In this document: positions 7,954 to 21,528 of the stretch, piece by piece
Layout: every line of letters starts with the position of its first letter
How positions within the stretch are numbered: the stretch's first letter is position 1
Assembly (NCBI GenBank): GCA_049970015.1
Contig: JBMFNT010000003.1
Coordinates: forward strand, 1-39,235
DNA length: 39,235 nucleotides
Direction of reading: 5' to 3'
Origin: Candidatus Micrarchaeia archaeon
GTDB lineage: Archaea > Micrarchaeota > Micrarchaeia > CAILAH01
Notes under the pieces: model-generated
The model's database searches: none
Told to the model about the DNA's origin: nothing
Seen by the model: only the letters and a program-made list of their open reading frames with translations
Translations under genes and position numbers: made by a program

Positions 7954-8916
7954 CTATTTGTATTCTGTTAATGAATACCTCTTTTTTAGGAGAGACACTG
8001 CAGCAGCTTCAATATCAGAAAATCTTGAGACTGGGACATTTACCCCTGCTGCATACATGTGCCCTCCTCCTGTACCCCCGAGCACTGCTGCAAGCTCTGA
8101 TGCAAACTGGCCAAGGTGCATCCCAAGCGAAGGAGAGGAGCGTATTGAAATCCTTACCTCTCCCTCTTTCTCATACCTTGCATATGCTAAGCCGAAGTCT
8201 GCAGCAAGACATTGTACAATCCTGGTTGCAACTATTGACTGGAACGAATCACAATCACTGAGTATGAAAACAAGCTTCCTGCGTGCATCCCGTAAAATTC
8301 TATAATTCATAAACGAGCGTGCAAAAACCAACCGCTCCGATTCACTGAGTGGAGGTCTTTCAACAAGCGCAACCAGTTCATCATAACTTTTACCTGCATA
8401 CCTGAGAAGGATTGGGATGTCTGCAAAGATTGAAGGGTCTCTTACTGCCTTAAACCTATAAGTGTCAGCAATCAGGCCAAGGAGGATCATATCGGCCTGA
8501 AAAGGAGTAGGTGTAATCCCCCTATCTTTCATCATCCTGTAGATTACATATGTGGTGGATGGTTGGTTTGGAAAAGAGAACCTATACGTGGCATTCAGCA
8601 ATGTCTTTCTCATGTGATGGTCTATTATGCACATGAACTTTTCTTTCTTTACCGGAATGAGTGAAGGGTCATCTACATCTACAAGCACGCATCTAGAAGG
8701 ATCTATTTTGCTAGATATACTGTAGTTAAGCTTGTATGCCTCACATATGGTGCGGGCATCACGTGATGGCCTGTCAAAGAAAACAACTTGTGATTTTGGA
8801 AAAAGGGAATGGATGAGAAAAGAGCTGCATACGCCATCTATATCAGAGAGGAGGTGCGATGAGACTATGAATGCATCATCGCTCGTCAATATGTCAAATA
8901 TGCTTAATGGCGGCAT
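7954..8916 (-). CDS. DHH/DHHA1 family phosphoesterase (NrnA/RecJ-like)
   Basis: Motifs SHLLSDIDGVCSS, VDVDD, IIDHH and C-terminal GGTGGGHMYAAG. Its ATG shares one base with the prefoldin stop (TAATG). Confidence 0.8.
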   Translation of the reverse strand: MPPLSIFDILTSDDAFIVSSHLLSDIDGVCSSFLIHSLFPKSQVVFFDRPSRDARTICEAYKLNYSISSKIDPSRCVLVDVDDPSLIPVKKEKFMCIIDHHMRKTLLNATYRFSFPNQPSTTYVIYRMMKDRGITPTPFQADMILLGLIADTYRFKAVRDPSIFADIPILLRYAGKSYDELVALVERPPLSESERLVFARSFMNYRILRDARRKLVFILSDCDSFQSIVATRIVQCLAADFGLAYARYEKEGEVRISIRSSPSLGMHLGQFASELAAVLGGTGGGHMYAAGVNVPVSRFSDIEAAAVSLLKKRYSLTEYK

Positions 8917-9245
8917 TAACTACCTCCCTGGGCGCCTTCAAGCTTCTCAGCAATCGCTTTCATCCTTGAACGTAGAATACGCTCATTCCTGTCAATGCTC
9001 TCGAGCCTTACTTCAACAAGCTGTTTCCTCTCAAGCAGGTCCTTCTCAATATCTTCCTTTTTTTTCTCTACAAGGAGTGTACCTATCATCTCATAGGTCT
9101 TGCCCTCAACATCTTTGAGAGAAGTGAGTGCCCTGTCCATATCCCCCTGCTGCAGAATCAGTTGCTGTTTTTCAATCATCAATGCCTGTAGTCGTGCTTG
9201 CAAGTCTTGCAGTTCAGATAGTTGATTTTCCATTTCATTTTCCAT
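8916..9245 (-). CDS. pfdB: Prefoldin beta subunit
   Basis: 109 aa with two coiled-coil arms around a central beta hairpin (KTYEMIGTLLVEKKKEDI). Size and pattern fit archaeal PfdB. Confidence 0.85.
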   Translation of the reverse strand: MENEMENQLSELQDLQARLQALMIEKQQLILQQGDMDRALTSLKDVEGKTYEMIGTLLVEKKKEDIEKDLLERKQLVEVRLESIDRNERILRSRMKAIAEKLEGAQGGS

Positions 9246-9253
9246 AACATCAC

Positions 9254-9481
9254 CTATTTCAACAAGCGTTCAACAGATTCACATACCCTCAACAGGCGTG
9301 CATGCTCGTTGAATGATGCACGGAGCGCTGTCAGATCAGTGGCGCTCATGTACACCACAACCTCTCCTTTGTCAACACTAACCCGGGACTTACATCTATC
9401 ATGCTCATCACCCTGTCCAATCGCGGCCACTACTCCATCCGGGTCTGGTACTGCCAGCCTAAGCGTGCATTCGTAAGCCAT
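9254..9481 (-). CDS. KEOPS Pcc1-like small protein
   Basis: MAYECTLRLAV...VSVDKGEVVVYMSATDLTALRASFNEHARLLRVCESV resembles Pcc1/CTAG-fold proteins, which commonly sit next to pfdB in archaea. Start chosen at the internal ATG 9481; the upstream part of the listed ORF is hydrophobic junk. Confidence 0.55.
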   Translation of the reverse strand: MAYECTLRLAVPDPDGVVAAIGQGDEHDRCKSRVSVDKGEVVVYMSATDLTALRASFNEHARLLRVCESVERLLK

Positions 9482-9532
9482 GAGTAGTTTTAGCCAATAA
9501 ATTAAATATACTTTTGCAATCATAAGCATAGC

Positions 9533-10447
9533 ATGGGGCCTCTTGCTAGATTGGATATTGCATTCCAGAAAACCATAATGTTCATAAACAACAATACTAT
9601 AAGGATAGCCTTGCTGTCCATGCTCTTTTTCTTTGCTGCCCTTGCATACAGCATATCCTGGTATATACTGGACATTTTCAAGGATATTGCATGCTATAAT
9701 GGAAACTATGCAATAGAACTGCTATTTTGTGGAACATACCTTGGGATACTTGGCAAGCATATAATTGCCACAATGATAAGCGCATCTGCAATACTTCCGT
9801 TTGCAGGCCTTGTATACTTGGTGCACAACCAAATGGAGAATAGAAGCAAGAAAGTGTTGCAATCAATATCCGAGAGCATGCCAGGAATATTCAGGATAAT
9901 AATATTCAGGACTGGCCTGGTCCTCCTCCTCTTTTCTCCATTTATACTCTTTCTTGTCTTTGGGGGCGATATAATAGCAAAATATATAACTGAAACTGGA
10001 AGATTGACCATACAAAAGCTGTTTATGGTTGACTTAATAATAATCCCTGTGTCGCTCGCTTTTGGGTTTATTATGATGGTGCTGCTCGAGCCCGTCTTCC
10101 AGTATGTTGAATATGAGGTTCTTGTATCCGGCCTTAGGGTAAGGGATGCAATAAGAAATTCGTACAGGATTGCAATGAACAACAAGAAAGAGACATTTAT
10201 ATCCGGGTTCACGTTCGTGGCCATATGGAGTGCATTAATTTTTCTGAAATACCTTCATATGGTGAACATACTACTTTCTGTTGCACTGCTTGCCGCAGTA
10301 TTCGTGGAAAGCTTCCTCATATTCCCGGTGCGTGCAATATTTTTGTATTTCTTGTGGAAAGATTTAAGAGAAGAAAATGTTGAAAAAAATGTTGCTGGGG
10401 TTATGCCTGCCACAAAAAGCTATCTTAACAAGATGCTTATGGGATGA
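9533..10447 (+). CDS. Polytopic membrane protein, unknown function
   Basis: 304 aa with about 6-7 hydrophobic helices. No motif recognised. Confidence 0.5.
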   Translation: MGPLARLDIAFQKTIMFINNNTIRIALLSMLFFFAALAYSISWYILDIFKDIACYNGNYAIELLFCGTYLGILGKHIIATMISASAILPFAGLVYLVHNQMENRSKKVLQSISESMPGIFRIIIFRTGLVLLLFSPFILFLVFGGDIIAKYITETGRLTIQKLFMVDLIIIPVSLAFGFIMMVLLEPVFQYVEYEVLVSGLRVRDAIRNSYRIAMNNKKETFISGFTFVAIWSALIFLKYLHMVNILLSVALLAAVFVESFLIFPVRAIFLYFLWKDLREENVEKNVAGVMPATKSYLNKMLMG

Positions 10448-14106: not shown

Positions 14107-15618
14107 TTACTCAACCTCCTTCTGGGTGAGGAAATAAACTCCAACACCCACTATTAATATGAGTATCACCGCAAGCACTGCAACTATTGGCAAACTTCCA
14201 TTTCCAAAGAATGCTGCGACAACTGCTGTAATATCCAAGGGCTTGTTGTCCACAGATTGCTGGACAGATTTATTAACAGCAACCACACTGAACTGCCCGG
14301 AAACATCGCTTATGCTGAACACGTAAGTACCATCAATGCTTGCCTTGAGGCTTACCTTACCATTTGTACCTGTCTTCAAAATAATCTTCTTACCAATCGG
14401 GTCTTTAACTAATACCTCCCTATTCGCAACAGGCTTTCCATACGAAGAAATGGATATAGTTATTGTATCTCCAACATAAACCTTCTTTGGGTGTGAGACT
14501 TCAATCTCTAAAGGTGTTGCCCCTGCATACAGTGTTGCGTTCTGTGTTGATTCCTCAGGTTTGTTGGGTTCAACCACGGGCTCAGCATTTTCCTTTGCTG
14601 GGTTCGTAATACTAACTACATATATCCCAGTCCTAGATTCGCTCGTGTCATCACCTGCACCTCCTCTACTTGAACTGCCTGAACTGCTGCCTGAACCATC
14701 CTGCTGGCCTGAGCCATTTGAGCCTGACACAACAGCTATCTTAAGATTGTCTACTATATTATCATTATACTGTGCAACCATAACATACTTCATGGCCTCA
14801 CTGCCTGACTTGAAAACACCGCTCACACGACCCCTTGAATCCGTAACACCGTAAACCACTACCCCATCATCACTGCCAACCTCTAAGCTTGCTACAGGCC
14901 TAGTAAGACCTTCTGATTGTAAGTATACCTTTACCCTCTTGCCACTAACTGGATTGCCATCACCATCCTTTAACTCAACATAAAATTTGGTCTCTGTGTT
15001 AACGAGAACATTTGATGCATCACCTGAAAATACTATATCTATGCTTCTAGGATTGTTATCCTGCTGGCCTGAGCCATTTGAGCCTGACACAACAGCTATC
15101 TTAAGATTGTCTACTATATTATCATTATACTGTGCAACCATAACATACTTCATGGCCTCACTGCCTGACTTGAAAACACCGCTCACACGACCCCTTGAAT
15201 CCGTAACACCGTAAACCACTACCCCATCATCACTGCCAACCTCTAAGCTTGCTACAGGCTTAGTAAGACCTTCTGATTGTAAGTATACCTTTACCCTCTT
15301 GCCACTAACTGGATTGCCATCACCATCCTTTAACTCAACATAAAATTTGGTCTCTGTGTTAACGAGAACATTTGATGCATCACCTGAAAATACTATATCT
15401 ATGCTGGATGGTTCTCTAACATTATCATCGTCATCTGAGTTGCTTGGAATATTTGGGGGAATATATGTCGGAACATCTACTGATGGAGTATTAATCACAT
15501 TTTCATACACTGTAAGCCCACTCGTATCTATATTATTTATATTCAGAGCATATGCAATACCTGCAAAAAGCAACACTGCTAAAGCAAATATCCAAGTTAC
15601 AAACGCTATCTTTTCCAT
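14107..15618 (-). CDS. Type-I anchored surface protein with duplicated Ig-like (Big-like) domains
   Basis: N-terminal signal peptide, two nearly identical 120-aa units (SIDIVFSGDASNVLVNTETKFYVELKDGDGNPVSGKRVKVY...), a G/S-rich linker, a third beta domain and a C-terminal TM helix (IVAVLAVILILIVGVGVYFL). Confidence 0.65.
   Translation of the reverse strand: MEKIAFVTWIFALAVLLFAGIAYALNINNIDTSGLTVYENVINTPSVDVPTYIPPNIPSNSDDDDNVREPSSIDIVFSGDASNVLVNTETKFYVELKDGDGNPVSGKRVKVYLQSEGLTKPVASLEVGSDDGVVVYGVTDSRGRVSGVFKSGSEAMKYVMVAQYNDNIVDNLKIAVVSGSNGSGQQDNNPRSIDIVFSGDASNVLVNTETKFYVELKDGDGNPVSGKRVKVYLQSEGLTRPVASLEVGSDDGVVVYGVTDSRGRVSGVFKSGSEAMKYVMVAQYNDNIVDNLKIAVVSGSNGSGQQDGSGSSSGSSSRGGAGDDTSESRTGIYVVSITNPAKENAEPVVEPNKPEESTQNATLYAGATPLEIEVSHPKKVYVGDTITISISSYGKPVANREVLVKDPIGKKIILKTGTNGKVSLKASIDGTYVFSISDVSGQFSVVAVNKSVQQSVDNKPLDITAVVAAFFGNGSLPIVAVLAVILILIVGVGVYFLTQKEVE
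14698..15405. repeat. Near-perfect tandem duplication, period 360 nt
   Basis: 14698-15045 and 15058-15405 are 348 nt each and differ only at 14900 (c) versus 15260 (t). A 12-nt unique junction separates them. The duplication is in frame within the surface-protein gene. Confidence 0.95.
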
Positions 15619-17878: not shown

Positions 17879-18067
17879 CTATGCCTTCTTTGCTCCGGCC
17901 AATCGTATGCAGTTCACCGGACATGCTTTTATGCACAGCTCACAGTCAACACACTTTTCTGGAAGCACCTCAACATAAACTTCCTTCAGCCTAAGAGCAA
18001 GGTATGGGCATGTTGCAACACATGCGCCACAGTAAATGCATCTCGTATGGTCTATTGATACTACCAT
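17879..18067 (-). CDS. 2x[4Fe-4S] ferredoxin
   Basis: CIYCGACVATCP and CVDCELCIKACP cluster motifs in 62 aa. It sits immediately upstream of the GGR gene. Confidence 0.85.
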   Translation of the reverse strand: MVVSIDHTRCIYCGACVATCPYLALRLKEVYVEVLPEKCVDCELCIKACPVNCIRLAGAKKA

Positions 18068-18126
18068 TTGGACACCAATTAGTTTTTAGGGATTAATTTA
18101 TTAAATTCAATAGGAGAAATTAGACC

Positions 18127-19263
18127 ATGGGCATTGCCTCAGGGATAACAAAGCTTGATGAGCATCTAGGGGGCGGGTTTGAGCAGGGTAAGAGCATTGC
18201 AATAGTTTCAATACCTGGGATTGATGCACGCGTGTTTGCATACCATATCATAAGCACAAACCCAACAATGAAAACGCTGTATGTTGTAGAAAATATATTC
18301 CCAGACCAGATTGAACGGGATGTTTCAAGATATTTGTTTTCTGGAAAAGCGTTCAGCAATACAATGTATTTTGATGCATTTTCTACGGGGTTGGGAATGC
18401 CAAGCAGACAAAAGTATTATGCAAAGGACGCAACTGACATGCAAAATGTTGCAGAAAGCATAATAAATGCTGTGTCCAGTGAGAAGCCATGGCTTGTAAT
18501 AATTGACTCATTATCAGGGATGCTTGCAAAGGCCAAGAACAAGGAAAGTGTGTGGAGCATGATAAGGAAGCTCACGGATAATGGTACGACTGTATTGTGT
18601 ATATATACAAAATGGGATGAAAAGGAGGCAGAAGATGTAAAACAGAGGCTTGATTATGTAATAGAAACCAAGAGTGTTGAAGAAAGGCTTTTGTCAAGAA
18701 GATATTTTAGGGTGGTAAAGGCACCAGGTAAATTTAATGCTTCAGCCGTGCCGTTCAGGATAGGGTTTGATGGAATTGCCCTTTATGTACCAAAAATAAT
18801 CATAACGGGACCGTTCCATGCAGGTAAGACAACATTTATACACAAGATAAGCACACGTGCCGTTTCAGTAAACAGGATGGGTACAACCATTGCGCTTGAC
18901 CATGGGTATGTCGAGCATAGCGGGTTCAGTGTTGACCTGTTTGGTACACCTGGCCAGGAGAGGTTTGAGTTTATGCTTGACATACTAAACAAAGATGCGT
19001 TTGGGGTTGTACTCATTGTTGATTCAACAAAGCCAGAGACTTTTGAGAGGGCAAAACAGATGCTCGCACATGTTTCAAGGTATAGCCTGCCTTATGTGGT
19101 GGTTGCAAATAAACAAGATTTACCATCGGCACTTCCACCTGCAAAAGTTAAGGAAATGCTCGGATTAGATGCCGAAGTTGTGGGTGCTGTTGCCATTGAA
19201 GGAAAGGGATGTATTGAAGCACTTAAAATACTCATCAATAATATTGTTGAGAGTGGTGCATGA
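18127..19263 (+). CDS. Fusion protein: KaiC/RecA-like domain lacking a P-loop, joined to a small GTPase (COG2229-like)
   Basis: The N-domain GITKLDEHLGGGFEQGKSIAIVSIPGIDARVF aligns to KaiC-like GxPGTGKT with the Gly, Lys and Thr replaced. Walker-B-like LVIIDSLS is retained. The C-domain has G1 GPFHAGKTT, G3 DLFGTPGQERF and G4 NKQD. Confidence 0.7.
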   Translation: MGIASGITKLDEHLGGGFEQGKSIAIVSIPGIDARVFAYHIISTNPTMKTLYVVENIFPDQIERDVSRYLFSGKAFSNTMYFDAFSTGLGMPSRQKYYAKDATDMQNVAESIINAVSSEKPWLVIIDSLSGMLAKAKNKESVWSMIRKLTDNGTTVLCIYTKWDEKEAEDVKQRLDYVIETKSVEERLLSRRYFRVVKAPGKFNASAVPFRIGFDGIALYVPKIIITGPFHAGKTTFIHKISTRAVSVNRMGTTIALDHGYVEHSGFSVDLFGTPGQERFEFMLDILNKDAFGVVLIVDSTKPETFERAKQMLAHVSRYSLPYVVVANKQDLPSALPPAKVKEMLGLDAEVVGAVAIEGKGCIEALKILINNIVESGA

Positions 19264-19919
19264 GGGTGGTTATGAAAAGCGGAATAAGTGAACTGGATGA
19301 TGCACTTAAGGGTGGCCTGCGTGAGAAATCTAACGTACTGGTTATTGGGCCTCCTGGCACTGAAAAGGTTATGCTTGCAGTTAGGTTCATATCAGGTGGG
19401 ATAGAAAGTGGGGATGGGATGGTCTACATAACCACAGACTTGCAACCGAGTGAGATTGAGGAAAAAAACCCTGAACTTAGCGGGCACACAAATAAGGAAC
19501 TTTTGTTCATAGATTGTTATTCCTGGACACTTGGGGCACAGCAGAGTGAAAGGAAAGATATAACCGTTCCTGGGCCAAGTGCGTTAAATGACCTTAGCAT
19601 AGGCATTGCACAGGCAATGCAAAAACTCTTCAAACCTGAAAGAAAACTAAGAGTAGTGTTTCAATCACTCTCAACACTTCTGCTCTACAATAATCCTGAA
19701 GTCATATACAGGTTTACACAGATTACTGGGGCACGGTTAAAAGGCAGTAATGCCACAACATTGTTTTTGATTGAGGAAGGAATGCATGACGATAAAGTGG
19801 TGACTACACTTAAGCACCTCGTTGATTCTGTGATAGAAATAAAGAGAGATAATGAAAAGATACTTGTAAGGGCCCCTATGGATGGGCTTGTCCAGTGGAA
19901 AGAAATTACACTTTCTTAG
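19260..19919 (+). CDS. KaiC-like (RecA-superfamily) protein with degenerate Walker motifs
   Basis: GISELDDALKGGLREKSNVLVIGPPGTEKV matches the KaiC-like fold, but the Walker A GKT is EKV and the Walker B position reads VVFQSLS (Asp to Gln). Its ATG overlaps the upstream stop (ATGA). Confidence 0.7.
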   Translation: MRVVMKSGISELDDALKGGLREKSNVLVIGPPGTEKVMLAVRFISGGIESGDGMVYITTDLQPSEIEEKNPELSGHTNKELLFIDCYSWTLGAQQSERKDITVPGPSALNDLSIGIAQAMQKLFKPERKLRVVFQSLSTLLLYNNPEVIYRFTQITGARLKGSNATTLFLIEEGMHDDKVVTTLKHLVDSVIEIKRDNEKILVRAPMDGLVQWKEITLS

Positions 19920-20180
19920 TTTTTCATTTTGATTAAAAGTGGGTGTGAGATTTGTGACATGCTCCCACCCTTAAAAGGTGTGGGCTTCTTGCTTCACATT
20001 TCTTATGTTCGCTTCCATCCCACAGCTCCCATGTGGGATTTCCTGTCACTTTTAGCTAAACCTATACATGGGTATCATAATGCAATACATCTTTTCTGAA
20101 ATTTTAGTATTTCCCATCGTGAATGGATAGTTCCTGCCTTGCAAGTACGGCTCTTGTCCCATAATACTGCTGCGAATATA

Positions 20181-20209
20181 TTCCTCCTCAAGATTGAGTT
20201 GTTATAGAT
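20181..20209. repeat. Left copy of a 29-bp direct repeat flanking the wHTH/NTase cassette
   Basis: ttcctcctcaagattgagttgttatagat matches 21678-21706 at 27/29 positions. It contains the palindrome CTCAA-GA-TTGAG. Confidence 0.85.
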
Positions 20210-20307
20210 AAAACTTAATGCCCCTACTGGCAAGCTCATATAGATTGGATGAGATATTTCGAGAATTGTCGAAAGATATATAAAGGATTGAAAATATAAA
20301 TAGAAAC

Positions 20308-20895
20308 ATGATCAAGAAAAGGGAGGCCGTGTACAGGGAGATGCTCACAGCTGCATTGTTGGAAAAGCGGTTCACATTCACGCAGCTGGGGCTCTCAAAA
20401 AAGTTTGGGTTTTCGCTGAGCACCATCCATAATGCGCTCAGGCCACTGGTTGGTATTGGGGCAATAGGCAAGAGGACTAGGTCATTTGAGATTATCGATA
20501 CTAGGAAGGTGCTCATGTACTGGGCAACGGCAAGGAAACTGCAGAGGGACATAATATACACAACACGGGTTGAAGGGCCCGTGGCAAGGATAGAGGGAAA
20601 CATGCCTGCAGGTGCCATATTCACTGCATATTCCGGGTATAGAATACTCTACAAGGATGCACCCGCTGATTATAGCGAGGTGTACGTTTATGCGGATGCA
20701 AAAGCCCTTGAGGAGATAAGGGAAAGATTCGCAGAGAAAAGCGGGCCACAAAACCTGTTCGTGCTCGAGAAGGATCCATACATGCCAGAGAAGCCGGTTG
20801 CGCCACTGCCGCAGATTTATGTAGACCTATGGAACTTGCGCGAGTGGTATGCGAAGGATTTCCTTGATGCATTGGAGAAAAGGATGTTTGGGTGA
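20308..20895 (+). CDS. wHTH DNA-binding protein with a C-terminal extension (AbiEi-antitoxin-like)
   Basis: N-terminal wHTH-like FTFTQLGLSKKFGFSLSTIHNALRPLVGIGAI followed by a ~120 aa domain. It lies 6 nt upstream of a nucleotidyltransferase gene, which is the AbiEi/AbiEii layout. The family call is an inference. Confidence 0.5.
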   Translation: MIKKREAVYREMLTAALLEKRFTFTQLGLSKKFGFSLSTIHNALRPLVGIGAIGKRTRSFEIIDTRKVLMYWATARKLQRDIIYTTRVEGPVARIEGNMPAGAIFTAYSGYRILYKDAPADYSEVYVYADAKALEEIRERFAEKSGPQNLFVLEKDPYMPEKPVAPLPQIYVDLWNLREWYAKDFLDALEKRMFG

Positions 20896-20901
20896 TTTTG
20901 T

Positions 20902-21528
20902 ATGAAGCCGCGTGAGTTCTGGAATGAGATAGTTACTGAGAAAAGCTGGGAGCTGCTTGTGGCGCTATCAAAAGAGTATGATTTCATCGTTATTGGGGGG
21001 TGGGCTGCATACCTCTGGACGAGGGTGCACAAGTCCAAAGACATTGACATAGTGGTGGATTATGAGACACTACGCGCATTAAAGGCGAAATTTAGTGTGA
21101 ACAAGAACGAGCGCCTCTCCAAGTATGAGATAAAGACTGGCGAGTTTGATATAGACATCTACGTGCCTGGATATTCAAAGCTCGCGGTGCCTGTTGAGCT
21201 GATTTTGGAGCATGTTGAAATAGTGGAGGGGATGAAAGTGCCCGCGCCCGAGGTGATAGTCTTGCTCAAGCAGGGCGCCGAGATTGCAAGAAGAGGCTCC
21301 TCCAAGGGGAAGAAGGACCTTATAGACATACTTACATTACTCATATACTCAGGGTTTTCTGTCAGTAAATACAGGAGTATTGCGGAAAAGCTGAGGCTGA
21401 AAGCATACGTAAAAGAATTGGAGAATGAGGTGCAGGCGTTCAGCCTGCGCGACCTTGAGTACCTGGGGATGGATGTCAACGAGTTTGCCAAATGGAAGCG
21501 TAACTTCCTGCGAGAGCTTCTGGCCTGA
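20902..21528 (+). CDS. Pol-beta-fold nucleotidyltransferase (AbiEii/DUF1814-like or related minimal NTase)
   Basis: The NTase signature hG[GS]x9-13DxD is present as VIGGWAAYLWTRVHKSKDIDIVV, with a third acidic strand EFDIDIYV. The C-terminal LKQGAEIARRGSSKGKKDLIDILTL resembles the AbiEii helical region. Confidence 0.6.
   Translation: MKPREFWNEIVTEKSWELLVALSKEYDFIVIGGWAAYLWTRVHKSKDIDIVVDYETLRALKAKFSVNKNERLSKYEIKTGEFDIDIYVPGYSKLAVPVELILEHVEIVEGMKVPAPEVIVLLKQGAEIARRGSSKGKKDLIDILTLLIYSGFSVSKYRSIAEKLRLKAYVKELENEVQAFSLRDLEYLGMDVNEFAKWKRNFLRELLA

Follow-up and report, generated by a model that had tools for sequence, protein, structure and literature searches.

The subject of this analysis is a pair of adjacent genes in a 39,235-nucleotide stretch of DNA from a Candidatus Micrarchaeia archaeon (GenBank assembly GCA_049970015.1, contig JBMFNT010000003.1, positions 1 to 39,235 of the forward strand; hereinafter the window). 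Gene 1 (18127–19263, + strand) codes for a 378-aa protein in which an inactive KaiC-like domain (iKaiC) is fused to an MglA-family GTPase, as delineated by the list of open reading frames (ORFs) and by Pfam. Gene 2 (19260–19919, + strand) codes for a stand-alone inactive KaiC-like protein of the Pfam family DUF7504, with 219 aa, or 215 aa if counted from the ATG at 19272. Both ORFs lie where an earlier interpretation of this DNA made from its letters alone (hereinafter the sequence-only reading) had placed them. That reading also had gene 2 start in an ATGA overlap with gene 1. The overlap is present in the DNA, with an upstream ATG at 19260 running into the TGA stop codon of gene 1 at 19261–19263 (gene junction, 19260–19274, + strand), but translation of gene 2 probably does not begin there. 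Among 64 homologues of gene 2, 43 have their first residue opposite residue 4 or 5, and a Shine-Dalgarno-like GAGGGTGG precedes the ATG at 19272; this downstream codon is therefore probably the true start, leaving an 8-nt gap after gene 1. The spacing in close relatives is likewise a gap of 2–13 nt, not an overlap. With either start the two genes are tightly coupled.

The best homologues of gene 1 and gene 2 were recovered with e-values of 1e-173 and 1e-103, respectively, which excludes chance resemblance; in public databases the homologues carry generic names such as 'GTP-binding protein', 'ATPase domain-containing protein', and 'RAD55 family ATPase'. A PADLOC scan for anti-phage defense systems returned only a 26-residue P-loop match of gene 1 to mad8 and no match for gene 2; as the match is trivial (P-loop only), we rejected a defense-system identity.

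The KaiC-like units and the GTPase domain

The N-terminal domain of gene 1 (residues 1–220; 18127–18786, + strand) was assigned the RecA/KaiC fold by both Pfam and Foldseek, in agreement with the sequence-only reading. Residues 4–220 match the Pfam KaiC model (PF06745) with 45.8 bits (cut-off 26.6), and an AlphaFold2 model of the protein from a deep alignment (predicted local distance difference test [pLDDT] 89.6; predicted template modeling score [pTM] 0.80) recovered PH0284 of Pyrococcus as its best Foldseek match (PDB: 2dr3; template modeling [TM] score 0.82, root-mean-square deviation 2.5), followed by Sso2452 and KaiC. The segment in the position of Walker A reads SIPGIDAR (residues 28–35; 18208–18231, + strand) and aligns on the GGPGTGKT of PH0284, a homologue with a solved structure; hence the GKT of the P-loop is missing. 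The P-loop is thus not intact, and the lack of Gly-Lys-Thr that had been noticed by eye was no mis-alignment. None of 106 homologues keeps GK[ST] in this domain. The former Walker A motif of the family instead reads P(101)-G(102)-[VIL]-[D/E](99)-x-x-x-F(103), with the counts given out of the same 106 sequences. The Walker B equivalent, LVIIDS (residues 123–128; 18493–18510, + strand), has Asp127 in the window copy (IIDSL); since the column reads D51/G37/E14 (n=106), this Asp is not conserved in the family. Where a catalytic Glu would follow strand 2, the window copy has Glu55, and the family column reads S37/E18/N18/D17. An exhaustive search with this domain retrieved mostly proteins of 370–415 aa, plus some of 200–260 aa that may be fragments or DUF7504-like.

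Gene 2 matches DUF7504 (PF24336) over model positions 2–179 of 179 with 81 bits (cut-off 27), and also PF06745 with 68 bits. Its AlphaFold2 model, likewise from a deep alignment (pLDDT 95.0; pTM 0.92), recovered PH0284 (TM score 0.76), Sso2452, and the CI domain of KaiC in Foldseek. The sequence-only description of its motifs as degenerate was borne out: the Walker A segment GPPGTEKV (residues 30–37; 19347–19370, + strand) aligns to GTPGTGKT and the Walker B equivalent VVFQS (residues 132–136; 19653–19667, + strand) to VVIDS, and the protein has neither the GK[ST] of Walker A nor the Asp of Walker B. Across the DUF7504 family (n=64) the former motif reads G-P-P-G-x-E-K-x, with Glu35 in 56 sequences, Lys36 in 60, and a variable position 37, and the Walker B column reads H28/Q25/N4/D2. 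These columns indicate that the loss of ATPase motifs in both KaiC-like units is a family-wide condition, not peculiar to the window copy. In profile comparisons the gene 1 domain matched DUF7504 with an e-value of 6e-36, as against 3e-27 and 8.5e-26 for active KaiC proteins encoded by neighboring genes, which suggests that the two inactive units are paralogues. A 371-aa protein from Chloroflexota (P0211) is a response regulator that joins a REC domain to a DUF7504-like domain; the inactive KaiC-like fold is therefore also a two-component output domain outside Archaea.

Several known members of the wider fold were tried as identities and rejected. The circadian KaiC does not apply, as each protein has one KaiC-like domain without the CI-CII tandem and the two score 28.9 and 48.9 bits against PRK09302 (cut-off 408). 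Nor do ArlH/FlaH (NCBIfam scores of 17.3 and 28.9 bits, cut-off 215; no arl genes in the window) or RadB/Rad55, the name under which NCBI lists gene 2 homologues (NCBIfam RadB, 11.9–13.8 bits, cut-off 278). The scores of both proteins against the NCBIfam thermo_KaiC model are also far below its cut-off.

The KaiC-like domain of gene 1 is followed by a short, rigid V-P-K junction (18787–18795, + strand). G216, P222, and K223 are invariant columns at this boundary, and in the model the last KaiC strand (216–219) and the first GTPase strand (223–227) are 3 residues apart. On the strength of the invariant V-P-K and the pTM of 0.80, the two domains are predicted to be rigidly joined. The C-terminal domain (residues 221–378; 18787–19260, + strand) was identified as an MglA-family small GTPase through sequence matches in the PDB (Arf-like 4v0k, e-value 1.5e-12; MglA 3t12, e-value 1.2e-8), and its residues 223–373 match small-GTPase models including Arf (53.3 bits), Ras, Roc, and TIGR00231. 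The G1/P-loop GPFHAGKT (18808–18831, + strand) has G228, G233, and K234 in 106/106 homologues and Ser or Thr at position 235. The G2 threonines, Thr253-Thr254 (18883–18888, + strand), are both present in 106/106, with a Thr where group 1 MglA has an intrinsic Arg finger. The G3 motif GTPGQ (residues 273–277; 18943–18957, + strand) has G273, T274, G276, and Q277 in 106/106 and P275 in 103/106, so that the family reads FGTPGQ in 103–106 of 106 sequences. The G4 motif NKQD, which confers guanine specificity (19108–19119, + strand), has N328 and K329 in 106/106 and D331 in 104/106. The sequence-only reading had called G1, G3, and G4 canonical. This holds for G1 and G4; the string DLFGTPGQ is also present, but alignment to Arf-like GTPases puts Gly273 at the position of the DxxG Asp, so 'canonical' is inaccurate for G3, the working motif being the MglA-type GTPGQ, not DxxGQ. 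K234 and T253 are separated by 19 residues, equal to the distance from K16 to T35 in Ras; there is no insertion between G1 and G2.

In the census of prokaryotic small GTPases, MglA groups 2–5 are defined by a G3 of the form GTPGQ in place of DxxGQ and by a Thr replacing the intrinsic Arg finger that group 1 has by the G2 Thr; archaeal members (group 4) are without the bacterial G1–G2 insertion, and no conserved neighbors were reported for them (Wuichet and Sogaard-Andersen, 2014, PMC4316618). The gene 1 GTPase has the GTPGQ, the T253-T254 pair, and, as in the archaeal type, no G1–G2 insertion; with 378 aa and two domains, the whole protein falls outside the single-domain, 150–240 aa definition of MglA in that work, which left out proteins of more than 240 aa. 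Since this cut-off excluded the fusion from the main census, the diversity and context of archaeal MglA proteins have probably been under-described. The GTPase domain is the more conserved part of gene 1: the mean identity of homologues to the window copy is 59%, vs. 31% for the N-terminal domain. The lowest pLDDT values of the model (64–78) fall in the switch I/II region, which fits a mobile, working switch. By these alignments the motifs G1–G4 are intact and essentially invariant across the family.

Distribution and genomic context of the fusion

A search covering 5.8 billion proteins retrieved 854 homologues of gene 1; the full-query matches listed are of ~330–440 aa, nearly all with both the KaiC and small-GTPase Pfam domains, and among them the closest relatives are from Micrarchaeota (60–71% identity), so that the window almost certainly derives from a DPANN archaeon resembling Micrarchaeum. 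A query from Methanosarcinaceae recovered 1642 protein clusters at an e-value of 1e-40 or better, the best 120 of which carry only names derived from metagenome-assembled genomes (MAGs). In a distribution scan using one genome per GTDB species we found at least 582 loci encoding the fusion (~370–420 aa), spanning most archaeal phyla. Those listed include DPANN lineages (Micrarchaeota, Aenigmatarchaeota, Woesearchaeota, Nanoarchaeia, and Altiarchaeota), methanogens and related euryarchaeal groups (Methanoperedens, Methanosarcinales, Methanocellales, Methanomicrobiales, Methanobacteriaceae, Archaeoglobaceae, Thermoplasmatota, and Hydrothermarchaeota), and other lineages such as Bathyarchaeia, Nitrososphaeria, and Thermoproteota. 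The fusion postulated from the window alone is thus genuine, an artefact being ruled out by its recurrence in at least 582 species genomes, and it is ancient and widespread. One 6.6-kb contig labeled as an Anaerolineales bacterium carries a Methanosarcinales-type operon (DUF7504, fusion, and Roadblock genes, in this order); the probable explanation is an archaeal contig that was wrongly binned with a bacterial MAG, not a true presence in bacteria.

For 80 species-representative loci we predicted the ORFs and assigned them to classes by means of profiles made from annotated partners. A gene coding for a Roadblock/LC7 protein lies within 2.5 kb of the fusion in 71 of the 80 loci and is directly adjacent on the same strand in 60; a second inactive KaiC-like gene of the DUF7504 type lies within 2.5 kb in 69, and 67 loci have a Roadblock gene together with a second KaiC-like gene. 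A KaiC-like ATPase with an intact Walker A motif occurs near the fusion in 18/80. The gene order is DUF7504, fusion, Roadblock in Methanosarcinales and Methanoperedens; fusion, DUF7504, Roadblock in many Micrarchaeota; Roadblock, fusion, DUF7504, DUF7504 in Methanobacteriaceae; and active KaiC, fusion, Roadblock, DUF7504 in Nitrososphaeria. That the linkage survives at least four gene orders is strong evidence that the fusion, DUF7504, and Roadblock proteins work together. The pairing of the fusion with a gene 2-type protein is therefore a conserved one, and the expectation, voiced in the sequence-only reading, that GTPases of this kind pair with Roadblock/MglB partners and not with KaiC-like ones does not hold: the family normally has both. 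Among the nine loci without a Roadblock gene, three end at a contig edge; three are from Micrarchaeota, two from Methanocellales, and one from an uncultured archaeon. Judging by these associations, the core of the full module consists of the iKaiC–MglA-type GTPase fusion, DUF7504, and a Roadblock/LC7 (MglB-like) protein, to which some lineages add a KaiC-like ATPase with an intact Walker A motif.

The composition of individual loci departs from this core in several ways. A Halobacteriota MAG has two fusion-plus-Roadblock modules in tandem (L070), and three of the loci from Methanomicrobiales and Methanobacteriaceae/Methanobacteriota MAGs (L079, L081, and L082, within L079–L082) have three DUF7504-like ORFs around one fusion; hence the composition of the scaffold seems to vary with lineage. 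At a conserved position inside the module, some DPANN loci encode small proteins without a Pfam match, namely an 80-aa helical protein after the Roadblock gene (L001, 8337–8579) and a 110-aa predicted membrane protein (L007, 7229–7561), which could be lineage-specific adaptors or outputs. Among 126 flanking ORFs from 36 de-replicated loci, PAS domains and radical SAM were the commonest families, and V4R occurred in three. The module resembles a regulatory unit complete in itself more than a component of one particular pathway.

In the 39-kb window itself we found no Roadblock gene, either by tblastn with five Roadblock seeds or by Pfam searches of 30 flanking ORFs; the adjacent Roadblock/LC7 gene of the MglA/MglB type, present at most of the related loci, is absent from this one. 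Three related loci (L009, L010, and L011) show the same two-gene arrangement as the window, with no Roadblock gene in between, and within this clade the GTPase domain is up to 87% identical. Their flanks also agree with those of the window: a divergent ferredoxin and geranylgeranyl reductase are encoded upstream in all three, and primase and GINS genes lie downstream in L009 and L011. A further micrarchaeotal locus, L012, has a fusion protein that is 66% identical and window-like synteny; in it, an extra ~540 bp between the fusion and DUF7504 genes encode a Roadblock protein (9251–9631; PF03259, 52.5 bits), and the fusion bears a ~40-aa Lys-rich C-terminal tail that overlaps the start of the Roadblock gene (region 8001–10320). 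Because the syntenic L012 has the operonic Roadblock gene, and the window and L009–L011 do not, it was lost in the window's clade of Micrarchaeota. Directly upstream of gene 1 in the window, as in L009–L012, stands the divergent 4Fe-4S ferredoxin/geranylgeranyl reductase pair (17879–18126), which seems to be a case of conserved synteny with no evident link in function. An AT-rich TATA-like stretch, TTTATTAAA, lies in the 59-bp intergenic region upstream of gene 1.

A putative GTPase switch on a pseudo-KaiC scaffold

We found no description of the fusion or of the three-gene module in the searchable literature, a scope outside which Makarova et al., 2017 lies; the gene pair belongs, in reduced form, to an archaeal module that is very common, apparently unstudied, and normally equipped with a Roadblock protein. 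By analogy, its nearest counterpart at the system level would be the actinobacterial conservon (CvnA–D), which likewise combines a group 2 MglA-family GTPase with GTPGQ (CvnD), a Roadblock protein (CvnB), and additional conserved partners, which together form a signaling complex. In the conservon, however, these partners are a histidine kinase and CvnC rather than KaiC-like pseudo-ATPases, no gene fusion is involved, and the system is bacterial. The resemblance to the MglA/MglB GTPase–GAP (GTPase-activating protein) polarity switch of Myxococcus xanthus and Thermus thermophilus lies in the Roadblock/LC7 (MglB-like) gene directly adjacent in most related loci; unlike in that system, a second KaiC-like protein adjoins the fusion and the window is without the Roadblock gene. 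With MglA groups 2–5 the GTPase shares the GTPGQ, the G2 Thr, and the absence of a G1–G2 insertion, and it differs from them in its covalent fusion to a ~220-aa KaiC-like domain. The inactivated KaiC domain is itself a described concept, which Galperin et al., 2018, attribute to Makarova et al., 2017. As cited there, the iKaiC domains and KaiC-like 'signal transduction hubs' of Archaea are similar in being single-domain KaiC/RecA-fold proteins with degenerate ATPase motifs that serve as signaling modules and are fused to other signaling domains (REC, HalOD1, PAS), whereas here the fusion partner is a small GTPase and the module adds a paralogous iKaiC (DUF7504) and a Roadblock protein.

The best structural matches (TM scores 0.76–0.82), PH0284, Sso2452, and ArlH (FlaH), are similar in size and fold and form oligomeric rings, with six chains in 2dr3; they bind ATP and have an intact GxxGxGKT, whereas both units here have lost the P-loop. 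Degenerate-P-loop paralogous RecA-fold subunits forming a structural ring are also seen in Elongator (Elp4/5/6) and Rad51-paralogue rings, a likeness in principle only. Pfam gave a marginal match of gene 2 to PAXNEB (Elp4) and a match of gene 1 to Elong_Iki1 (Elp5) below the cut-off; in contrast to these systems, the module here has no link to tRNA modification or recombination.

Our preferred reading, to which we assign a probability of roughly 0.6, sees in the pair a conserved archaeal signaling module reduced to two genes, with an MglA-type GTPase switch carried by a hetero-oligomeric pseudo-KaiC scaffold. Neither inactive KaiC-like unit would hydrolyze ATP any longer; the two would serve for oligomerization, probably as a mixed ring like the hexamers of their closest structural relatives; because the best of these relatives are ring-forming single-domain KaiC homologues, co-assembly into a mixed oligomer is probable. 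Such a scaffold would display several GTPase heads. The GTPase would be the sole working nucleotide switch, with its GTP/GDP state as the signal that governs whether an output partner binds. A Roadblock dimer would, in most archaea, set the rate of hydrolysis or exchange, as MglB does for MglA; in the window lineage the GTPase would use a Roadblock protein encoded elsewhere or rely on intrinsic or oligomerization-dependent hydrolysis. The sequence-only reading had pictured two dead KaiC-like scaffolds wired to a single live GTPase. The family-wide motif loss and the invariant GTPase motifs agree with this picture, but it describes the reduced form only, given that most loci have a Roadblock gene and 18/80 also a KaiC-like ATPase with an intact Walker A motif. 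A switch or signaling role appears to be the most reasonable interpretation of these features.

Several points weigh against this reconstruction. The binding of the gene 1 protein to the gene 2 protein and the ring are both inferred. The ~40 kb of genome covered mean that there may be a Roadblock gene elsewhere in the genome. No conserved neighbor beyond the core module suggests an output: in the Pfam scan of the 126 flanking ORFs no family occurred in more than four. DUF7504 keeps the Walker A Lys (60/64) and the gene 1 domain has a conserved acidic residue in its former P-loop, and a nucleotide, or some other ligand, could still occupy either KaiC-like site.

If so, the KaiC-like units might be sensors: their remodeled P-loops would bind ATP, ADP, or a phosphorylated ligand without hydrolysis, and occupancy would pass via the rigid junction, with the pseudo-ATPase as input and the GTPase as output. 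We consider this unlikely, though the retained Lys stands next to a conserved Glu, and DUF7504 copies from Methanoperedens and Hydrothermarchaeales (GPPMSGKE and GPPMVGKG) still have a GxxxxGK. In the former P-loop of gene 1, P30, G31, [DE]33, and F37 are present in ~95% or more of the homologues; conservation this strong implies selection on that pocket. The invariant domain junction would suit the transmission of occupancy, and the active KaiC at some loci could provide a phosphorylation input. Nucleotide sensing is nonetheless hard to reconcile with the absence of the Mg2+-coordinating Ser/Thr from both families, with a Walker B acid that is lost or variable, with the lack of conservation at the catalytic Glu position after strand 2, and with the acidic residue in the P-loop of gene 1, which would repel phosphate.

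Distinctly improbable is the proposal that the module is a dedicated regulator of the type IV pilus or archaellum, joining an ArlH/FlaH-like KaiC to an MglA/MglB-like polarity switch. In Myxococcus, MglA activates type IV pili. Both proteins of the pair have weak similarities to ArlH/FlaH, although with 17–29 bits against a cut-off of 215, and T2SSE/T2SSF genes stand beside the module in four DPANN loci (L007, L077, L085, and L090) and at a distance in L001. Moreover, many archaeal type IV pilus loci have KaiC-family ATPases and Roadblock proteins (arCOG02603) (Makarova et al., 2016). Across the census, however, T2SSE/F genes lie within 8 kb of the fusion in only 6/80 loci, a count made with profiles seeded from a single locus that may miss divergent pilus genes. 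The Pfam scan of neighbors, which is independent of these profiles, has no type IV pilus family among the 25 commonest in the 126 ORFs, and the 39 kb of the window contain neither pilus nor archaellum genes. With T2SSE/F near so few loci and no enriched flanking family, we rejected this role.

The last alternative, in which misassembly or a frameshift produced the fusion or the pair is a decaying, functionless remnant, could draw on the missing Roadblock partner at the window locus and on the fast evolution of the gene 1 N-terminal domain, and it is refuted by the conservation data, namely an architecture that recurs in no fewer than 582 species genomes and in 1642 protein clusters, invariant junction residues, window GTPase motifs that are all intact in a clade up to 87% identical in this domain, and two full-length ORFs with high-confidence predicted folds.

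The scaffold-mounted GTPase switch can also be stated in a general form, that nearly all archaeal phyla have a mixed pseudo-KaiC ring presenting MglA-type GTPase heads gated by a Roadblock dimer; we offer this as a tentative and somewhat doubtful generalization. Were it true, the ring would physically join KaiC-like hubs and small GTPases, the two main candidate signaling currencies of Archaea, and the window's Micrarchaeum clade would amount to a naturally occurring knock-out in which the switch operates in the absence of its operonic GAP. To our knowledge, Archaea have few classical two-component and Ser/Thr-kinase systems; among the KaiC-like proteins proposed as their main signaling hubs we know of almost none with a known mechanism, and we know of no function assigned to archaeal MglA-type GTPases and their Roadblock partners. 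The module brings these hubs and GTPases into a single operon and, in part, a single polypeptide. With one GTPase, two dead ATPase folds, and one candidate GAP, it is a biochemically tractable entry point, and the contribution of the GAP could emerge from a comparison of the window lineage with the syntenic L012.

Other features of the window

Gene 2 is followed by a ~390-bp non-coding stretch in which we found no Rfam, tRNA, or repeat match; an RNA gene there was rejected on these empty scans. Beyond it, within the region 19920–21528, are a 195-aa ORF without a Pfam match (20308–20895) and a gene for a 208-aa DUF6036 nucleotidyltransferase (20902–21528). As the two genes are absent from the syntenic L009, L011, and L012, they form an insertion specific to the window, possibly a small cassette of a mobile or toxin-antitoxin-like kind. 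Upstream of the gene pair, the - strand encodes a 503-aa predicted surface protein (14107–15618) with an N-terminal signal or transmembrane segment and a C-terminal transmembrane anchor. It contains two nearly identical tandem blocks of ~120 aa (SIDIVFSGDASNVLVNTETKFYVELKDGDGNPVSGKRVKVYLQSEGLT...), which result from an internal duplication of very recent date or else from the assembly.

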